Source of the DNA: Ostreococcus lucimarinus
Taxonomy: Eukaryota
NCBI GenBank assembly: GCA_000092065.1
Contig: CP000592.1
Reading direction: 5' to 3' (one strand)
Length of the DNA stretch: 64,000 bases
Shown: positions 45,031-53,252 of the stretch, in pieces
Position numbering within the stretch: position 1 is the first letter of the stretch
Layout: each line of letters starts with the position of its first letter
Made by a program: the position numbers and the translations under genes
The notes under the pieces: model-generated
Seen by the model: only the letters and a program-made list of their open reading frames with translations
Database searches by the model: none
What the model was told of the DNA's origin: nothing

Positions 45031-48000
45031 TTACGCGGCCGTGGCGGCGTCCCATTGGATCCAGGCTGGAATACCCTCGTCGTCGTCTTCGTGCTCGTGG
45101 TCGTGGTCGACGTCGTCCTCGGCGAAGGATTCTTCGAGAGCGTCGGCGGAGTACGCGTCCGACTTTGATGCGTGCTTTTTGGACTTGTGAGAGTGTTTCG
45201 AGGAACCGTGCTGAGCGTGCGTCGAAAGGTTTTCGTCACCCTCGTCGTCGTCTTCGTCAAAGTCCGCGGAACTACTGCGATGAGAGCTCTTCTTCTTCGG
45301 CGCGCGCTCAACTGAGTCGTCCCACGGATTCTTATTGTGCTTGGAAGATTCTTTAGGGACAAAACTCTGTGATTCCGCGAGAGCCTCGAAGTCGACGCTT
45401 TCATCATGCTTCTTTCGTCCATGTCCGTGTGCATCGCGCGTGTCCTCGTCGACGTCGTCGTCGTCATCGTCGTACGAGTCGCTCGCCTTGGAGGCGCTCG
45501 AGGAGAAGAGATCGTACGAAATCTTGTGCTTCATATGTTTGGCGTCGTGCATGGAGTACGTCGAGCGGTGGTGATACAAATGATCAGCCGCGTCATCAGC
45601 GTATGTCGGCAACTTGGCGCCAGTGCGAGCAGCGACAGCTTCGCGCGGTTCTTCGTAATATTCTGTCTCGTCCACGTTTTGCTCGTCGTCAATCATGAGC
45701 GAGTTTTGATGAATTTCTGGAGGCTTGAGCGCGTCTAATCCATACGAGGTGCCCCAAAATGAACCATCGTGTCTATCTTTCGCGTACACAATTGGCTTGT
45801 CCGAAGTTGTCGAAGAAGTGACCGGGGCTTGCACAGCCGGAGCAAAGCGAGATGGCACCACTTGGCGCGCCGGCGCAAGCGCTGGACGACTTTGTGACGA
45901 TCCCGACATGGGTACCGGCTGCGCTGGCTGCTGATACGTGGCCGTCTGCTGCGGTTGCTGGTACGTAGTCGGCTGCGCTGGCTGCTGATACGTGGCCGTC
46001 TGCTGCGGTTGCTGGTACGTAGTCGGCTGCGCTGGCTGCTGATACGTGGCCGTCTGCTGCGGTTGCTGGTACGTAGTCGGCTGCGCTGGCTGCTGATACG
46101 TGGCCGTCTGCTGCGGTTGCTGGTACGTAGTCGGCTGCGCAGCAATCGGTTGCTGCCGCACCGTGTGATGTTTCTGCTCGCGGTCAGCTTGCGGTTGTTC
46201 CTTGTGACTGCTGTGTCTCGGCTCGACTTCTTCGAACTCGTCCGAAATGTCGCTCTTGTGATGCTTCTGCTCGCGATTCGGTCCGCCGTTCTGGTTTTCT
46301 TGCGTGAAATCTACGGGCGGTAAACCTCTCGACGCCTTCTCCCAGGGCGCCGCGTGGCCTTCGAATCCCAATGTGCTAGAACTATTGACCTCGGTTGCGT
46401 TCGTCTCAATGCCAGTCAGCGACTGCTGTTCCGCTGCGTTCGGGCTGGTGGTTGGAACTGGGGAAGATGAGGCCGGCGCCACGGGCGTAGGTAACACGTC
46501 CGTTGAAGTAGCTGCCTCAATGCCAGTCAGCGACTGCTGTTCCGCTGCGTTCGGGCTGGTGGTTGGAACTGGGGAAGATGAGGCCGGCGCCACGGGCGTA
46601 GGTAACACGTCCGTTGAAGTAGCTGCCTCAATGCCAGTCAGCGACTGCTGTTCCGCTGCGTTCGGGCTGGTGGTTGGAACTGGGGAAGATGAGGCCGGCG
46701 CCACGGGCGTAGGTAACACGTCCGTTGAAGTAGCTGCCTTCATCGCGTCAGCCAGCGTCATGGGATCTGAGTACTCCTCTGATGCGTCTTCCTGCGATGC
46801 ACCAAGCCTCGCTGCCGTCGGACGTGGCAACGCTTGCGCCTGTTCTGCCGGTGTGGTTCGACCAGCGTTTGTCGTGACGTTACCACCACTCACCTCAGAG
46901 TCGTCGTGAAACGCGCCGAGGGACGCTTGGAAGTGTTCCATGCTCCAGAAATCTTGATGCTTCCCAGCGCGTTGCATTTTCCAACCCCAGAAAAAGTTTG
47001 GCATGTTTGCGACCTCAAAAGCTCGCATTTGACCCCTGTACACAGCATGTTTCACTCTATCTTCGTCGCAGCCCATGGCGCTGTCGTGATGCGTCGCGAG
47101 CGACCACTCGCCCACACTAAATTGGTGCACTCCGATGTCCTCCGCCGTGCGCTTCACCTTCGCGATGTGCCCGGCCATGGCAGATCGAACGGTTTCAGTG
47201 ATGTGTTGCGACGAGTCCGAGCAACTCCAAGCGCACCCAGACTTGCATCCATTCACTCCCCAAGCGAGATAGAAGTGTGTGTCTAATACCGCCCACGTTC
47301 TAAGCTCTTCGCGATCGAACCACTTTCTCATGAGTTTCCCGTACTCTTGTACTGCTAGCCCACTCGTTTCCATCAAATTGACGTACAGCTTTGGCACGCG
47401 CTTGCCCGACATCTCGCGGGGTCGCGCCACGAGCTGACGATACGCAAAGATGGCCTTCTCCATCCATGCCAGCATCGCGTCGCGTTTCGCCGGCATCAAG
47501 TGCGCGGGTTCGTTCAAAAGCGTGAAGCCATCGACAAAATCCTTATCATCCTCAGTGAGGTGGTTGTACCACTTGAACATACTGTGAATCGCGTTCACAC
47601 CCACGTCTTGAAGTTTTGCGTCGTCCCAAAACGCCGGTGGGTGCGGAGACACGCCGTTGTACGTGCCCTCCGAGCTGCCACCGGGCATGTTGTGCATGTC
47701 GACTACCACTCGCGCCCCAGTCTTCTTGTGCAAGATTCGAAGAACGTTCGTCAACGTCATCTGATCGACAGTCACCTGCGCTCGATCGCTATACTTTGGG
47801 TCTTCGACCACTCGCGTCGGGCTTTTCTCCGTGCCCATGAACGCCGCCCAATTCACAGGTAGTCGCAGCGTCTTGTATCCCACTCGCGCGATCTTCTCCA
47901 CGTCCGCGTTCGTCATCCAACTCGATCGATACGCGTTCATAATCTTCACAGTCTTCAAATTCCCATACTTCTTCGCGAGTTTCGCCACCAACTCCCCCTC

Positions 48001-48528
48001 GCTCGACCACGAAAAACCGAGCTCCTCGGCTGAATTGAAAAACGGCGGCAACACCCTTCCCTGCGCGCGCCCGAGCGGCGAATCCACCAACGTGCTCTCA
48101 CCGTTCGCGAAGAACCAATCCTCGAGGTGCAACCATCCGTTCAACGCGACGCCCGCGTTATCCGGAACGCGCGTGAACGCCTCGCGCTCGACCGGCGTCA
48201 ATCCCAGCGCCGCGCTCTCGCGCGCGCGCGCGTCCCCCGTCGCCGTCCCTCGCGCGCGCGCCCCGAGCACCGCCACCATCGCGCCGAGCGCGACGCACGC
48301 CGCGCGTCCGCGTCGCCGCGCATCCCTTCCCGCGCCGTCGCTCGCTCGAGTCGTCTTCCCGCCGCGCGCGTCGTCGCCGGCGTCGCGCGCGCCGTCGTCG
48401 GCGTCGATCTCGCCGCGCGCGCGCTCGACGTCGTACGCGTCGTCGCGCGCGCGCGCGCGGTCGCGCGTCGCGCGGGACGACGACGGACGATCGCCGCCGC
48501 GTCCGAGCAGCGCCGCGCGCTCGCTCAT
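45031..48528 (-). CDS. membrane-anchored glycoside hydrolase family 5 protein with long repetitive Ser/Thr/Pro/Gln-rich stalk and acidic tail
   Basis: An N-terminal TM helix is followed by a GH5 domain carrying the catalytic NEP and GEW motifs. About 650 aa of low-complexity sequence follow, with two families of tandem repeats. I chose the ATG at 48528, and there is an alternative at 48573. Confidence 0.7.
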   Translation of the reverse strand: MSERAALLGRGGDRPSSSRATRDRARARDDAYDVERARGEIDADDGARDAGDDARGGKTTRASDGAGRDARRRGRAACVALGAMVAVLGARARGTATGDARARESAALGLTPVEREAFTRVPDNAGVALNGWLHLEDWFFANGESTLVDSPLGRAQGRVLPPFFNSAEELGFSWSSEGELVAKLAKKYGNLKTVKIMNAYRSSWMTNADVEKIARVGYKTLRLPVNWAAFMGTEKSPTRVVEDPKYSDRAQVTVDQMTLTNVLRILHKKTGARVVVDMHNMPGGSSEGTYNGVSPHPPAFWDDAKLQDVGVNAIHSMFKWYNHLTEDDKDFVDGFTLLNEPAHLMPAKRDAMLAWMEKAIFAYRQLVARPREMSGKRVPKLYVNLMETSGLAVQEYGKLMRKWFDREELRTWAVLDTHFYLAWGVNGCKSGCAWSCSDSSQHITETVRSAMAGHIAKVKRTAEDIGVHQFSVGEWSLATHHDSAMGCDEDRVKHAVYRGQMRAFEVANMPNFFWGWKMQRAGKHQDFWSMEHFQASLGAFHDDSEVSGGNVTTNAGRTTPAEQAQALPRPTAARLGASQEDASEEYSDPMTLADAMKAATSTDVLPTPVAPASSSPVPTTSPNAAEQQSLTGIEAATSTDVLPTPVAPASSSPVPTTSPNAAEQQSLTGIEAATSTDVLPTPVAPASSSPVPTTSPNAAEQQSLTGIETNATEVNSSSTLGFEGHAAPWEKASRGLPPVDFTQENQNGGPNREQKHHKSDISDEFEEVEPRHSSHKEQPQADREQKHHTVRQQPIAAQPTTYQQPQQTATYQQPAQPTTYQQPQQTATYQQPAQPTTYQQPQQTATYQQPAQPTTYQQPQQTATYQQPAQPVPMSGSSQSRPALAPARQVVPSRFAPAVQAPVTSSTTSDKPIVYAKDRHDGSFWGTSYGLDALKPPEIHQNSLMIDDEQNVDETEYYEEPREAVAARTGAKLPTYADDAADHLYHHRSTYSMHDAKHMKHKISYDLFSSSASKASDSYDDDDDDVDEDTRDAHGHGRKKHDESVDFEALAESQSFVPKESSKHNKNPWDDSVERAPKKKSSHRSSSADFDEDDDEGDENLSTHAQHGSSKHSHKSKKHASKSDAYSADALEESFAEDDVDHDHEHEDDDEGIPAWIQWDAATAA
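45911..46130. repeat. 54-nt tandem repeat x4 (encodes TYQQPAQPTTYQQPQQTA units) inside GH5 gene
   Basis: Near-perfect copies of ggtacgtagtcggctgcgctggctgctgatacgtggccgtctgctgcggttgct are seen. Confidence 0.85.
46408..46740. repeat. 111-nt perfect tandem repeat x3 (encodes DVLPTPVAPASSSPVPTTSPNAAEQQSLTGIEAATST) inside GH5 gene
   Basis: Three essentially identical 111-nt units are seen directly. Confidence 0.9.
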
Positions 48529-48743
48529 GGCCGCCGTCGCGCGCGGTCGCGGTGTGATGACGCGCCCGCTCATGAGTTTTGGGTGTTGAACGACAAAAGG
48601 TCCGTGTGGATTCAGCTGATTAAAATTAAAACACACGCGCGGAGCACCGAGGACGCGCGGCGGTGATTGATTATTGGTGATTATCGGTGATCATCGCGCG
48701 ATCGAGGATCGAGCGCGACGGTCGGGGTTGACAAAATTTTCGC

Positions 48744-50366
48744 TCAGACGGCGCCGTAGGCGCCGCGCGCGCCGCGTCGGAGACGCGCGGCCTCGGGCGA
48801 CGCGTGACGGTGTCGCCTGTAAGCGACGAACGCCAAGGCGAGGAAACCGGTGAGAGCGACGGATGGGCCGATGAGCGACGCGTGGGAGTTCGAGGCGGCG
48901 TAGAGGGCTCGGCCCAAGGTTGGAACGCCGACGGGGCCGTCGCCGCCGACGGGGTAACCGCCGCCGGTGGTGCCGTCGCCGCCGACGGGGTAACCGCCGC
49001 CGGTGGCGCCGTCGCCGCCGACGGGGTAACCGCCGCCGGTGGTGCCGTCGCCGCCGACGGGGTGATCGCCGCCGGTGGTGCCGTCGCCGCCGACGGGGTA
49101 ACCGCCGCCGGTGGTGCCGTCGCCGCCGACGGGGTAACCGCCGCCGGTGGTGCCATCGCCGCCGACGGGGTAACCGCCGCCGGTGGTGCCATCGCCGCCG
49201 ATGGGGTGATCGCCGCCGGTGGTGCCGTCGCCGCCGTCGCCGCCGTCGCCGCCATCGCCGCCACCGCCGCCGATGCTGCCGTCGCCGCCTTCGCCGCCTT
49301 CGCCGCCGTCGCCGCCGTCGCCGCCGTCGCCGCCGTCGCCGCCGTCCACGTGAGCCAGGGCGTCTTCGCAGCCGGTGTTGACTTCCGGTAGGTTGGGCTT
49401 CGGATGACAGTGCGGGCCTTCTTCATCGTCGTCATCAGGGTTACCTTCGTCAAACTCACAACCAGCGTTTGCCTCGCATGCACTTTGGTCTTCGTCGCTC
49501 ATCGAACACTCAATGTCGCACAGGTCGATCTGCTTGTTGGTTTCCTTGACGAACGTCTGCAAGTCGCCAAATGTTCTCGGGCACACGTCGAAGCCCATGG
49601 CGTCCGACTCAGGGTGCGGGACGCAAAGTGCTCCGTTCGGGAGCTCTTCGTTCCATTCGCAGGCAATCATGCTAGTGCACGAGTCCGCATCGGTGCCCTC
49701 TCGACAAACCTCCACGCAAGGGTTGGTGGCGTCACCGCCGCCGTCGCCGCCGTCGCCGCCATCGCCGCCGTCGTGGCCGGTGGTGCCGTCACCGTCGCCG
49801 CCTTCGCCGCCTTCGCCGCCTTCGCCGCCTTCGCCGCCTTCGCCGCCTTCGCCGCCTTCGCCGCCGTTGCCGCCACCGCCGCCGTCGCCGCCGTCGCCGC
49901 CGTCCACGCGAGCCAAGGCGTCTTCGCAGCCAGTGTTGACTTCCGGTAGGTTGAACTTCGGACGACAGTGCGGGCCTTCTTCATCGCCGCCTTCAGGGTT
50001 TAGGCCTTCTTCATCGCCGCCTTCATCGCCGCCTTCAGGACCTTTGTCGAACTCACAACCAGCGTTTGCCTCGCACGTACTTTGGTCGTCGATGATCGAA
50101 CACTCGACTTCGCACAGGTTGATCTGCTGAATGTTGTTGGTAGTCTTGACGAACGTCTGTAACTCGCCAAATGTTTTCGGGCACGCGTCGAAGCCCATGG
50201 CGTACGACTCAGGGTGCGGGACGCACGTCGAGTCCGCGTCGCCCCATTCGCAGGCGAGCATGGCGTCGCACGAGTCCGCGTCGGTTTTCGCTTGACAGAA
50301 GCCCTCGCAAGGGTTGTTGGCGTCGCCGCCAGCGGGGTAGCCGCCGTCGCCGCCATTGCCGCCGGT

Positions 50367-50409
<43 letters not shown>

Positions 50410-50534
50410 TTGCCGCCGGTGCCGCCGCCGGTGCCGCCGCCGCCGCCGCCATTGCCGCCGCCGCCATTGCCGCCGGTGCCGCCGCCGGTGCCGCCGCCGC
50501 CGCCGCCATTGCCGCCGGTGCCGCCGCCGCCGGT

Positions 50535-50595
<61 letters not shown>

Positions 50596-50912
50596 TTGCC
50601 GCCGGTGCCGCCGCCGGTGCCGCCGTCGCCGCCGTGACCGCCGCCGGTGCCGCCGTCGCCGCCGTGACCGCCGCCGTGACCGCCGTGACCGCCGCCCTGA
50701 CCGCCGCCGTGACCGCCGTGACCGCCGCCGTGACCGCCGCCGTGACCGCCGTGACCGCCGCCCTGACCGCCGCCGTGACCGCCGTGACCGCCGCCCTGAC
50801 CGCCGACAGCGTGACCGCCGACGTGACCGCCGTCACCCTCGCCGCGCGCCGCGTCGTCCGCGCGATCCGCCTCCTCCGTCGTCGCCGCCGTCACCGCGCC
50901 GCGTCGCGTCAT
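48744..50912 (-). CDS. glycine-rich, cysteine-module cell-surface-type protein with C-terminal TM anchor
   Basis: His/Gly-rich (GGHGG)n and a poly-Gly tract of about 100 aa come first. Two copies of a ~130-aa 10-Cys module (NPC..C...SC....ACEW...C.PHPES.AMGFD.CP.TFG.LQTFVK...C..ECS......C.ANAGCEFD) follow. Then come nine YPVGGDGTTGG repeats and a C-terminal hydrophobic helix plus basic tail. The start is uncertain, no signal peptide is seen at the chosen ATG 50912, and the track ORF extends to 51095 into a duplicated AT-rich element. Confidence 0.55.
48940..49235. repeat. 33-nt tandem repeat x9 (encodes GGYPVGGDGTT units)
   Basis: gacggggtaaccgccgccggtggtgccgtcgccgcc units are seen directly with minor variants. 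Confidence 0.85.
50340..50640. repeat. near-pure (GCC)n trinucleotide tract (~300 nt) encoding poly-Gly on the minus strand
   Basis: Seen directly, with occasional ATT/GGT interruptions. Confidence 0.9.
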
Positions 50913-51042
50913 CGCGCGTTCGAGCGTTCGAGTACGTTCGCGGTCGCGCGCGCGCGTCGCGGGAGCGCTCGCGTGTGTCGCGCGCGCGTCGTTCGCCGTC
51001 GACGACGCCGATCCATCATCGCTGACGCGGATCGGGGGTGTT

Positions 51043-51300
51043 GCGCAGAGTCGGAATCTTCGATATACCGTAAATATACGCCTTTGTATGTACATTAAAC
51101 ACGTAGAGTAACTCGTAACACCCCATCAATATGCGTGGAGCGAGACGCGCGGCGTGCGACCTCTCTGTGTGTGACGCAGCGTCGGAATCTTCGATATGCC
51201 GTAAATCTACTCTTGTGTATGTACATTAAACACGTATAATCACTAGTAACACTCTATGTGTGGAAACGCGTGCGACCTCTCTGCGTGCCCAGACTGCGCG
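51043..51300. repeat. ~130-bp AT-rich segment tandemly duplicated (2 copies, ~85% identity) in intergenic region
   Basis: Copy 1 is gtcggaatcttcgatataccgtaaatatacgcctttgtatgtacattaaacacgtagagtaactcgtaacac...gtgcgacctctctgtgtg. Copy 2 is gtcggaatcttcgatatgccgtaaatctactcttgtgtatgtacattaaacacgtataatcactagtaacac...gtgcgacctctctgcgtg. Confidence 0.8.
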
Positions 51301-51524
51301 CCATACGCACGACACGATTCGCCGCGCGCGTCGCGCGGACGCGCGAACGCCAGCGCGACGCGCGGATGCTCGCGCGCGCGATCGCGCGCGTCGAACCGCG
51401 ACCGCGCGGCGACGCGCGCGCGACGCGACGAGCGGCGATTCGACCGAACGCGGCGACGAATCGTTCGATGATCGCGCGCGCGATTCGAAATCGCGCGATT
51501 CGAACGACGCGCGCGCGATTCGCG

Positions 51525-52094
51525 ATGGACGGGACGTCGGCGCGCGCGATGGGGACGTCGGAGACGGTGGCGACGGCGACGCGCGTCGGGAGCGCGCGAG
51601 AGGGGTCGGGAGCGACGGCGGGCGCGCGAGCGACGACGCCGGTGCGAGGCGCGCCGCCGTTGCCGCCGGCGGCGGCGAGAGCGCCGACGCGGGCGCCGAC
51701 GGGAGGCGCGGGGACGACGGGACGCGAGCGCGACGGCGGAGGGAAACCCGCGCTGGGGGGGATCGTGCCGGAGGACATCGACGCGGTGTATCATCAGATG
51801 CAACACTTGGGGAATAAGTGGGCGGACGCGCACGCGGAGGCGGAGATGCTGGAGGAGGCGAAGAAGTGCGTGTTGGCGACGATCACGCTGCATTACATCG
51901 GGGACGGTGGTACGAAGGCGGCGGCGGAGGTGCAGGCGTACGCGTCGCAGGAGTATCAGGATCACATTAAACGCATGGTCGAGGCGCGGAGACGGGCGAA
52001 TTTGGCCAAGATCGAGCTCGAGAGCATCAAGACGCACTTAAACTTGACGAGGACGTACGAGGCGACGCGACGGGAGGAGATGAAGATGCTCTGA
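51525..52094 (+). CDS. hypothetical protein with C-terminal ~110-aa helical/coiled-coil domain
   Basis: The C-terminal block is GIVPEDIDAVYHQMQHLGNKWADAHAEAEMLEEAKK...ELESIKTHLNLTRTYEATRREEMKML. The N-terminus is Arg/Ala-rich. The ATG at 51525 is in frame with the track ORF from 51258, which starts inside the duplicated element. Confidence 0.35.
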   Translation: MDGTSARAMGTSETVATATRVGSAREGSGATAGARATTPVRGAPPLPPAAARAPTRAPTGGAGTTGRERDGGGKPALGGIVPEDIDAVYHQMQHLGNKWADAHAEAEMLEEAKKCVLATITLHYIGDGGTKAAAEVQAYASQEYQDHIKRMVEARRRANLAKIELESIKTHLNLTRTYEATRREEMKML

Positions 52095-52187: not shown

Positions 52188-53252
52188 CTAAAGCGCGTCT
52201 AGGCCGAGCTCGGCGCTGTATCCGCCCATCTTCTTCGCGTCGCTCACGAGCTCGACCATGCGCGCGACGCCGCCGCCGATCTGAATCATCGTCGCGCATC
52301 CCTCGGAAAGGCGCAAATGCGTGAATCCTATGATGCGAATCAACTCGAGCTTGATGAACTCTGGCATCGCCGTATCGTCAAAATTTTTACACACTCGGTA
52401 CATGGTGCCGATGATGTCGAACACCGAATACCCTTGGTCGTGCAGCGACTTCAAGCGCGCGTACGCGTCATCGACGTTCCCTTGCAAAATGAACGAAAAC
52501 GCGTCTCGCACGATGTTCGGATGCGGTTGATCGCACACTCGAAACACGTTTTCCTCGTTCACCATCCCGAAACCGAGCGCCGTCGATTGCAAGTTATTCA
52601 ACGCCTGTCTCATGTCCCCATCCGCGGTGAACACGATCGCCTCTAAACCTTTCGGCACGTACGTCACCTTCTCCGCCTCCACCACGGTCATCAACCTCTT
52701 CAAAACCTGTGCGTCCGTCAGTTTCCCGAACCGCACGATCGCGCACCGCGACTGAATCGGTTCGATCACCTTCTCACTCGTGTTACACGCCAACGCAAAC
52801 CGCGTCGTCGCGCTGTAAATCTCCATCGTTCTTCGCATCGCTTGCTGCGCCGCCGTCGTCATGCTATCCGCCTCGTCCAATATCACCAGTTTCGTTCGTC
52901 CCGGCGCGAGCGTCACCTTTTTCTGCGCAAACATTTTAATCTTATTCCTCACCACATCGATCCCTCGCTCGTCGCTCGCGTTCATCTCCAGCACCGCCTC
53001 CTTGTATTTATCTCCCAGCAGCTCTCGCGCCAGCACGCCGATCGCGGACGTCTTCCCGCACCCCGGGGGACCGGAAAAGATCAAGTTTGGCATGAAGCCG
53101 CTCCGCACCATGGTTCGCATGCGATCGACCGCGTCGTCGTTCCCGACGAGATCGTCCAGGGTCTTGGGGCGGTACTTCTCGACCCACGGCATGCCGTCGT
53201 CGCTTTTGGGCTTCTGCGCCGCGCGCAGGGCGGCGAAGGCGTCGGCGACCAT
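52188..53252 (-). CDS. RFC: replication factor C small subunit (AAA+ clamp loader; RFC2/RFC4-type)
   Basis: PWVEKYRP, the Walker [10 protein letters not shown], the DEAD-like [10 protein letters not shown] and the SRC motif (SRCAIVRF) are all present. The ATG at 53252 was verified. Confidence 0.9.

Follow-up and report, generated by a model that had tools for sequence, protein, structure and literature searches.

A hypervariable, lineage-restricted gene of Ostreococcus is predicted to encode a membrane-anchored glycine-rich protein with small cysteine knots

In this work, we have analysed a gene present on the minus strand of a 64,000-nucleotide (nt) stretch of DNA from a 'lucimarinus'-type Ostreococcus (64 kb in all, hereafter the window). 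An open frame spans 48744..51095, and a conserved ATG at 50912 defines a coding sequence (CDS) at 48744-50912 with 722 amino acids (aa) plus the stop. Our results show how this gene is built, that it is restricted to one lineage of Ostreococcus, and that it is hypervariable between wild strains and subject to intragenic gene conversion. The locus represents a new family within a broadly familiar kind of protein, the repeat-variable membrane proteins with small Cys knots. We propose that its product displays disulfide-bonded knots on anionic Gly-rich linkers at the cell surface, a reading that we would expect to stand or fall with about equal ease.

The reading frame was followed through 14 independent assemblies of the locus (L005-L011, L015-L020 and the window) and through one called protein, P0137. 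In nine of the 14 it is intact from a common MTRRGAVTAATTEE start to a common ...GARGAYGAV end; the intact alleles L006 (571 aa), L016, L017 and P0137 (558 aa) are 551-571 aa long, and 24 of 24 Cys are kept in intact alleles. Codon-usage log-odds in the two non-repetitive Cys modules place the sense frame best of six, with GC3>GC1>GC2, and these modules are free of stop codons and frameshifts in 12 of the 14 assemblies. The modules, 141 and 130 aa long and 63% identical (BLASTP E 4e-59), differ at 35 of 126 aligned residues, yet retain 12 of 12 Cys (P=0.016). Each is an internal duplication, which gives four half-units in the protein, and these have 14 of 52 columns in common, five of the 14 being Cys (P=0.004). 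Because of the common start and end, the best codon score, the 24 retained Cys and a Cys retention unlikely by chance, we conclude from sequence comparison that this is a genuine, unannotated protein-coding gene. The conservation of the C-terminal helix and tail was discarded as evidence of selection, since the last 186 nt, identical in 10 of 11 alleles, match the background identity.

On the plus strand, mirror-frame open reading frames (ORFs) over the gene (49513-50130, 50356-50637 and others) would code for (SPP)n, poly-Pro, poly-Ala and poly-Arg, and the (SPP)n product could easily be mistaken for a hydroxyproline-rich glycoprotein of green algae. As the true gene, the antisense (SPP)n and poly-Pro ORFs were rejected, since they are fragmented and score below the sense frame in codon usage.

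The repeats make assembly and calling of the locus difficult, a possible reason for the lack of a reference protein. Contigs often break in them (L012-L014 terminate in, or just short of, the Gly tract), and L007-L010, chromosome-length contigs of ~540 kb from JGI and ENA, carry +/-1 frameshifts in the Gly/Asp repeat tracts that are in frame in other contigs and are probably long-read errors. An earlier reading of the window made from the letters alone (the sequence-only reading) had considered that the region might be an assembly artefact of a collapsed repeat. The long N-terminal tract appears not to be an isolated artefact, because four other chromosome-length assemblies have tracts of 543-564 nt, against 597 nt in the window.

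Between wild strains, no other spot in the neighbourhood comes near the gene in variability. Seven long loci give a pairwise diversity (pi) of 0.013-0.088 over ~51500-48850 versus 0-0.003 in most flanking windows, and the hotspot takes in the promoter and the CDS to the end of its 12-aa repeats, the non-repetitive modules included. In the same loci, synonymous differences per site (pS) are ~0 in the genes for RFC (replication factor C) and URO-D. Megablast identity is 85-93% in the gene versus 99-99.7% in the flanks, and the same is seen in separate JGI metagenome contigs. Repeat-tract length differs 2-7 fold among the 14 assemblies: the distance from the ATG to module 1 is 258-622 nt (in the 12 assemblies that hold this segment), spacer 1 measures 180-282 nt, spacer 2 together with the 12-aa repeats 76-549 nt, and module 1 itself 345-426 nt, through duplication of a GGDEEGLNPE insert. 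Some alleles have GYPV/DHPV repeats between the modules, in spacer 1, while L011 and L020, both intact alleles, have almost none of the His-Gly repeats, and L016 and L017 have short ones. The sequence-only reading had foreseen length polymorphism of the (GCC)n tract, and the variability extends to the whole gene.

Modules also exchange sequence. In allele L006, module 2 contains ~100-150 nt that match the allele's own module 1 exactly and are unlike module 2 of the window, which, on the alignment, identifies an intragenic gene-conversion tract from module 1. A different case is L015 (1-2200), whose URO-D is 100% identical to that of other strains and whose module 2 differs from the window with pN (nonsynonymous) 0.21 and pS 0.33. 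This allele has lost one Cys and shows four frame changes and several substitutions in the transmembrane (TM) helix; it could be a deeply divergent allele reflecting allelic dimorphism, a decaying allele or pseudogene, or an assembly error.

The gene is restricted to the 'lucimarinus'-type lineage of Ostreococcus. The RFC gene of the window, at 52188-53252 (-), shares a 90% cluster with O. lucimarinus CCE9901 XP_001420841, and 708 blocks of metagenome data contain it in identical form. Our target has a small conserved gene on one side and a cellulase-like gene on the other, and the order RFC, small gene, cellulase-like gene and URO-D is kept in two other Ostreococcus lineages, where RFC is 84% and URO-D 90-91% identical. 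There, only 300-420 bp separate the small gene from the cellulase-like gene, and tblastn and blastn found no trace of the target in this spacer in either lineage; a gene remnant was rejected, the matches being of low complexity only. Whether the gene was gained in the lucimarinus-type lineage or lost elsewhere, either would fit this distribution. O. tauri appears to be without the gene. An exhaustive HMMER search of 1.84 billion representative proteins with a two-module profile gave two matches, both metagenome alleles, and a word-indexed homologue search with a longer query returned only the metagenome proteins P0137 and P0016 and no NCBI or UniRef entry. The word-indexed search with module 2 as query missed P0016 despite long exact stretches, so that negatives for rare proteins need caution. 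No match was obtained in a scan of viral contigs, and a metagenome pattern scan found five loci, all of one species, with patterns too specific for distant relatives. By tblastn there is no paralogue in the window, where the gene is single-copy.

The structured parts of the protein would be only four Cys knots of ~40-60 residues, two in each module. The half-units follow the core C-x3-C-x4-D-x3-C-x5-C-E-[WF]-x(n)-C-x-P-x(1-4)-P-E, in which the variable gap is x(6-29), and C6, C10, D15, C19, C25, E26, C37, P39, P41 and E42 are invariant in all four. As the sequence-only reading had supposed, the module is not a named domain: at E<=10, Pfam returned 0 families for the whole protein, both modules and the four half-units. 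Searches of PDB sequences with profiles of the whole module, of the A halves only and of the B halves only gave chance matches (E>1). The AF2 model of a whole module was poor (pLDDT 59), and with this low-confidence model Foldseek found nothing at E<5 in the PDB. A single half-unit, modelled from the alignment of the four units, reached pLDDT 79.9 on this input of four sequences, with a helix, helix, beta-hairpin, helix, helix order.

When the four-unit profile was run against all PDB sequences, the variant surface glycoprotein (VSG) VSG545 ranked first (E 0.011) and VSG MITat1.21 third (E 0.13), while the best E was 6.4 for the reversed and 1.1 for the column-shuffled control profile. The HMMER alignment covers residues 428-462 of VSG545 and 415-446 of MITat1.21, and in it Cys 2-5 of the unit fall on the VSG Cys and the unit's [FW] on the VSG Phe (C-x8-C-x5-C-[DE]-F-D-E-K...C-F-P-K versus C-x8-C-x5-C-E-[FW]...C-x-P-[KH]). 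Within the C-terminal domain (CTD) of the VSG, structured regions have four conserved Cys and a conserved aromatic residue, occur once or twice on flexible linkers close to the membrane anchor, and are disulfide-bonded extracellular modules (PMC12226131). Four conserved Cys and a conserved aromatic are likewise found in each half-unit. The likeness to the Trypanosoma brucei CTD (PDB 5m4t, 2jwg, 8q0e, 8q0p) extends to the size of the units (~35-50 residues), to the spacing C-x8-C-x5-C-x-[FW]-x6-7-C-x-P-K/H, and to single or tandem units that are flexibly linked and adjoin the membrane anchor. The algal unit differs in having an additional Cys pair, C-x3-C, on its N-terminal side as well as a sixth Cys, and the algal protein, whose host is a green alga, in having four units on very long Gly-rich linkers and a TM helix with a basic tail instead of a glycosylphosphatidylinositol (GPI) anchor. 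Neither a VSG N-terminal domain nor a GPI-anchor signal was found, the N-terminal 190 residues being low-complexity Gly/His. The match was absent with the A halves alone or the B halves alone, and at E<=0.001 it was also absent from the profile search of 1.84e9 proteins; the Pfam VSG C-terminal family model, which we take to be Trypan_glycop_C, PF10659, was unmatched by the whole protein, modules and half-units at E<=10. From profile and model, the resemblance of the half-unit to a structured region of the VSG CTD is suggestive, and it could be due to homology or to convergence. We call the Cys unit VSG-CTD-like, and not a member of the VSG CTD family, because it has no Pfam match, no match with the A or B halves alone, and a model built on four sequences.

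The layout of the protein is given in Table 1. Much of it had been seen in the sequence-only reading: the His-Gly repeats that come first, here (GGHGG/GGGQ)n at residues ~28-85, the (GGD)n/(GGE)n-type spacers, apparent in the translation, and the C-terminal TM helix with its basic tail (residues 678-698, then 24 aa) all held up, and with them the general picture of a membrane-anchored Gly-rich protein with Cys modules. The run of about 100 near-consecutive Gly is there as a tract of 105 residues, of which 85 (81%) are Gly, the longest pure runs being of 20 and 14 residues and interrupted by T and N; in the DNA, 81 of the 100 triplets of 50340-50640 are GCC, with the longest pure (GCC)20 at 50535-50594. 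Two modules of about 130 aa had been described correctly, with 10 Cys in each where we count 12 conserved ones, and the nine 11-aa repeats proved to have a period of 36 nt (12 aa) and 8.4 copies, with six units of the TTGGGYPVGGDG type and two DHP[IV] variants. RTX-like Ca-binding repeats were considered for this array and rejected: its period is 12 aa, and the RTX-type nonapeptide GGxGxDxUx, looked for in tandem, was not encountered. The protein as a whole is strongly acidic (112 D+E versus 24 K+R), has 37% Gly and contains two Trp.

Table 1. Features of the gene and of its predicted product in the window
Feature	Position	Strand	Basis
Complete CDS, Gly-rich Cys-module membrane protein	48744..50912	-	shared start, shared end, codon usage
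Conserved non-hydrophobic polar N-terminus, residues 1-27; not a signal peptide	50832..50912	-	hydropathy, allele comparison
His/Gly/Gln repeats (GGGHGGH/GGGQ)n, residues 28-85; presence differs by allele	50658..50831	-	translation
Gly tract, residues 86-190; near-pure (GCC)n on the + strand	50343..50657	-	
Cys module 1, residues 197-337, 12 Cys, two VSG-CTD-like units; variable acidic insert GGDEEGLNPE	49902..50324	-	
Spacer 1, (GGD)n/(GGE)n, residues 338-393	49734..49901	-	
Cys module 2, residues 394-523, 12 Cys, two VSG-CTD-like units	49344..49733	-	
Spacer 2, (GGD)n/(GGE)n, residues 524-563	49224..49343	-	
12-aa (36-nt) tandem repeat TTGGGYPVGGDG, 8.4 copies; putative membrane-proximal stalk	48927..49223	-	
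Single TM helix, residues 678-698, LIGPSVALTGFLALAFVAY region	48819..48881	-	hydropathy
Basic tail of 24 aa, RRHRHASPEAARLRRGARGAYGAV, final residues YGAV	48747..48818	-	translation
5' untranslated region and divergent promoter region	50913..51290	.	polymorphic, non-triplet indels

How might this protein reach a membrane? The 19-residue Kyte-Doolittle mean exceeds 1.5 in one segment only, residues 678-698, and this helix, of moderate hydrophobicity and with G, P, S and T among its residues, is the sole membrane-targeting element seen. It is followed by the tail with 7 Arg and 2 His in 24 aa, the end of which, YGAV, might act as a YxxPhi-type motif. The absence of a signal peptide after the chosen ATG, already pointed out in the sequence-only reading, is borne out by the hydropathy of the first 60 residues, where the best 19-residue mean is -0.4. 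That reading had supposed that an upstream exon is missing, an idea that did not survive the comparison of strains. Within 100-200 nt upstream of the ATG, the alignment of 11 loci has indels of 1, 2 and 3 nt, and because not all of these are multiples of 3 the region is non-coding; no hydrophobic stretch was found in any frame upstream of the ATG, and a divergently transcribed gene lies ~400-600 nt away. An upstream signal-peptide exon was rejected on these grounds and, to judge by the alignment, is unlikely. Further upstream, the divergent promoter region contains an AT-rich 89-nt direct repeat (51038-51126 and 51169-51257, 84% identical, with 131-nt spacing) and small indels among strains.

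The protein probably faces outward, although the evidence for this is weaker: a strongly basic tail comes after the TM helix in an otherwise acidic protein, as the positive-inside rule would have it. We favour exoplasmic display because of the likeness to VSG, the acidic ectodomain with a basic tail, the order of stalk, TM helix and tail, and the extreme polymorphism. Location and biological role are both inferred. The four knots would be disulfide-bonded beads, carried by flexible anionic Gly/Asp/Glu/Thr linkers at the exoplasmic face of the membrane and tethered there by the C-terminal helix, and knots and linkers together would give a wall-less cell a coat or stalk layer close to its membrane. 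Linker lengths would shift readily through slippage of (GCC)n and unequal recombination between repeats of 9, 33 and 36 nt, and the modules swap sequence by intragenic gene conversion. Because of slippage, unequal recombination and gene conversion, the locus would behave as a hypervariable, contingency-like surface locus, for which diversifying pressure from viruses, grazers or cell-cell recognition is plausible.

Several results weigh against this proposal. With no signal peptide and no plausible upstream exon, the route by which the 680-residue N-terminal part would become exoplasmic is unexplained; compared with a type I surface glycoprotein, our protein has the single TM helix, the positive tail and the acidic ectodomain, and lacks the cleavable signal peptide. 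There is no N-x-S/T sequon anywhere in the 722 aa. Frameshifts occur in five of the 14 assemblies, mostly within repeats, with L008 and L015 shifted in module 2 as well. Finally, the ratio of nonsynonymous to synonymous divergence (dN/dS) in the modules is 0.3-1.0 between alleles (2.3 in one pair) and 0.58-0.76 between modules, which denotes weak constraint.

Because the signal peptide is lacking, a tail-anchored topology facing the cytosol is a serious rival, if an unlikely one. Here the protein would be inserted post-translationally in the endoplasmic reticulum or in an organelle outer membrane, the Cys and Gly regions would be cytosolic, the Cys (with the conserved His) would bind zinc or another metal, and the basic tail would resemble the tail-anchor signals of mitochondrial or plastid outer membranes. 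Tail-anchored proteins have no signal peptide and a single TM segment within ~30 residues of the C-terminus, and our protein shows both: its one hydrophobic segment lies 24 residues from the end and is followed by the Arg-rich tail, and an upstream exon is unlikely. The lack of sequons and the moderate hydrophobicity of a helix with G, P, S and T agree with this topology too. The Cys spacings C-x3-C and C-x5-C, however, are unlike the usual C-x2-C of zinc knuckles; tail-anchored proteins expose cytosolic functional domains, whereas the algal ones look like extracellular disulfide knots and have the extracellular VSG C-terminal domains as their only candidate structural and sequence neighbours. 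Moreover, type I surface proteins show this succession of structured Cys modules, repetitive Thr/Pro/Gly stalk, TM helix and short basic tail, and polymorphism as extreme as this is more typical of exposed surface molecules. We give the same low credence to an ORF that is young, weakly constrained or decaying and has little function or none, whose variability comes from the instability of GC-rich triplet and 36-nt repeats and from gene conversion, and whose frame stays open chiefly through repeat units that are all multiples of 3. Such an ORF would be consistent with the absence of the gene from sister lineages and of any NCBI or UniRef match, with dN/dS near 1 in several allele pairs, with the frameshifts and the state of L015, and with a C-terminal 186 nt that gives no evidence of constraint. 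It would not be expected to keep its Cys scaffold while paralogous units diverge at 28-37% of residues, nor to have modules undamaged in nearly all assemblies and with native-like codon usage; a half-unit from four sequences is predicted to fold at pLDDT 80, and the raised diversity reaches non-repetitive modules and promoter, beyond the repeats.

The sequence-only reading itself had proposed a cell-wall or scale-associated, or a metal-binding (His/Gly), surface glycoprotein, which we now hold to be very improbable. The (GGGHGGH)n repeats of this allele, with 13 His in 74 residues, speak for it, the acidic (GGD)n/(GGE)n tracts are possible ligands for divalent cations, and the architecture parallels that of the diatom frustulins. 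In these, acidic Cys-rich ACR domains are joined by polyglycine or proline-rich linkers, and there are an endoplasmic reticulum presequence, CQGDCD/VPGCSG hexapeptides and a Trp-rich domain (PMC4712521). Our protein is likewise a candidate marine microalgal surface protein with acidic Cys-rich modules, both of them flanked by Gly tract and (GGD/GGE)n, but it is membrane-anchored and not wall-bound, and the presequence, the hexapeptides C[EQ]GDCD and VPGCSG and the Trp-rich domain are all absent. No sequence similarity to frustulins was detected in the profile search of 1.84 billion representative proteins. Frustulin membership was rejected, since the defining motifs are missing, and the relation would be one of functional analogy only. 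Association with a wall or scales is also at odds with Ostreococcus being regarded as naked, without scales or a discernible wall, though its lack of a surface layer has been queried (PMC3355577). Metal binding through His and Gly is unlikely because the His-Gly repeats are not conserved among intact alleles.

The proposal of a variable surface protein has parallels in the fungal FLO/ALS adhesins and the Plasmodium repeat antigens, which are surface proteins hypervariable in repeat length and encoded by contingency loci. As in these, in-frame repeat copy number differs by strain, modules stand on a variable stalk, and diversity is locally raised relative to the flanks, with intragenic recombination or gene conversion. 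The domains are unrelated, and the algal gene differs in being single-copy, with no paralogue in the window, and in lacking a signal peptide and a GPI signal.

Other features were noted in the neighbouring genes. The next gene downstream, at 45031-48636 (-), codes for a ~1200-aa protein whose N-terminus is Arg-rich and which has a signal-anchor-like helix as well as a cellulase/GH5-like region; its ortholog in L023 has a weak PF00150 match, and the window copy has no Pfam match. It contains perfect tandem repeats of 111 nt x3 (46405-46739) and 54 nt x4.2 (45916-46140), and the called length varies by strain between 1039 and 1197 aa. Tandem repeats scoring >=200 in the window are confined to this gene and the target gene. 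The divergent neighbour, at 51285-52094 (+), is called as 269 aa, has no Pfam match and lies inside the diversity hotspot. Conservation in other Ostreococcus lineages, where this gene is called as 192-227 aa, is limited to the C-terminal ~116 residues (88-95% identity), and the Arg/Ala-rich N-terminal half may be non-coding.

What could this gene mean for the biology of Ostreococcus? These algae are among the most abundant marine picoeukaryotes, their viruses are strain-specific, and we know of no Ostreococcus host surface determinant for viruses. Single-copy, lineage-restricted and 10-50 times more polymorphic than its flanks, the gene is a candidate for a role in virus adsorption, grazer recognition or mating, and the interest would be high if the locus is a surface determinant of virus or mating specificity. 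It also marks an annotation gap, since no NCBI or UniRef protein matches it, and it bears on whether Ostreococcus truly has no surface layer. A bolder and rather improbable version is that the unit is a true structural counterpart of the VSG CTD in a free-living green alga, in a single-copy, lineage-specific coat or receptor gene made hyperpolymorphic by diversifying selection. The product could then decide, strain by strain, the susceptibility to prasinoviruses, as the attachment determinant or as a shield, or be a gamete-recognition molecule. If true, the presence of a VSG C-terminal type of four-Cys knot outside kinetoplastids would be relevant to the evolution or convergence of membrane-proximal coat modules, and the 'naked' Ostreococcus would have a proteinaceous surface coat.

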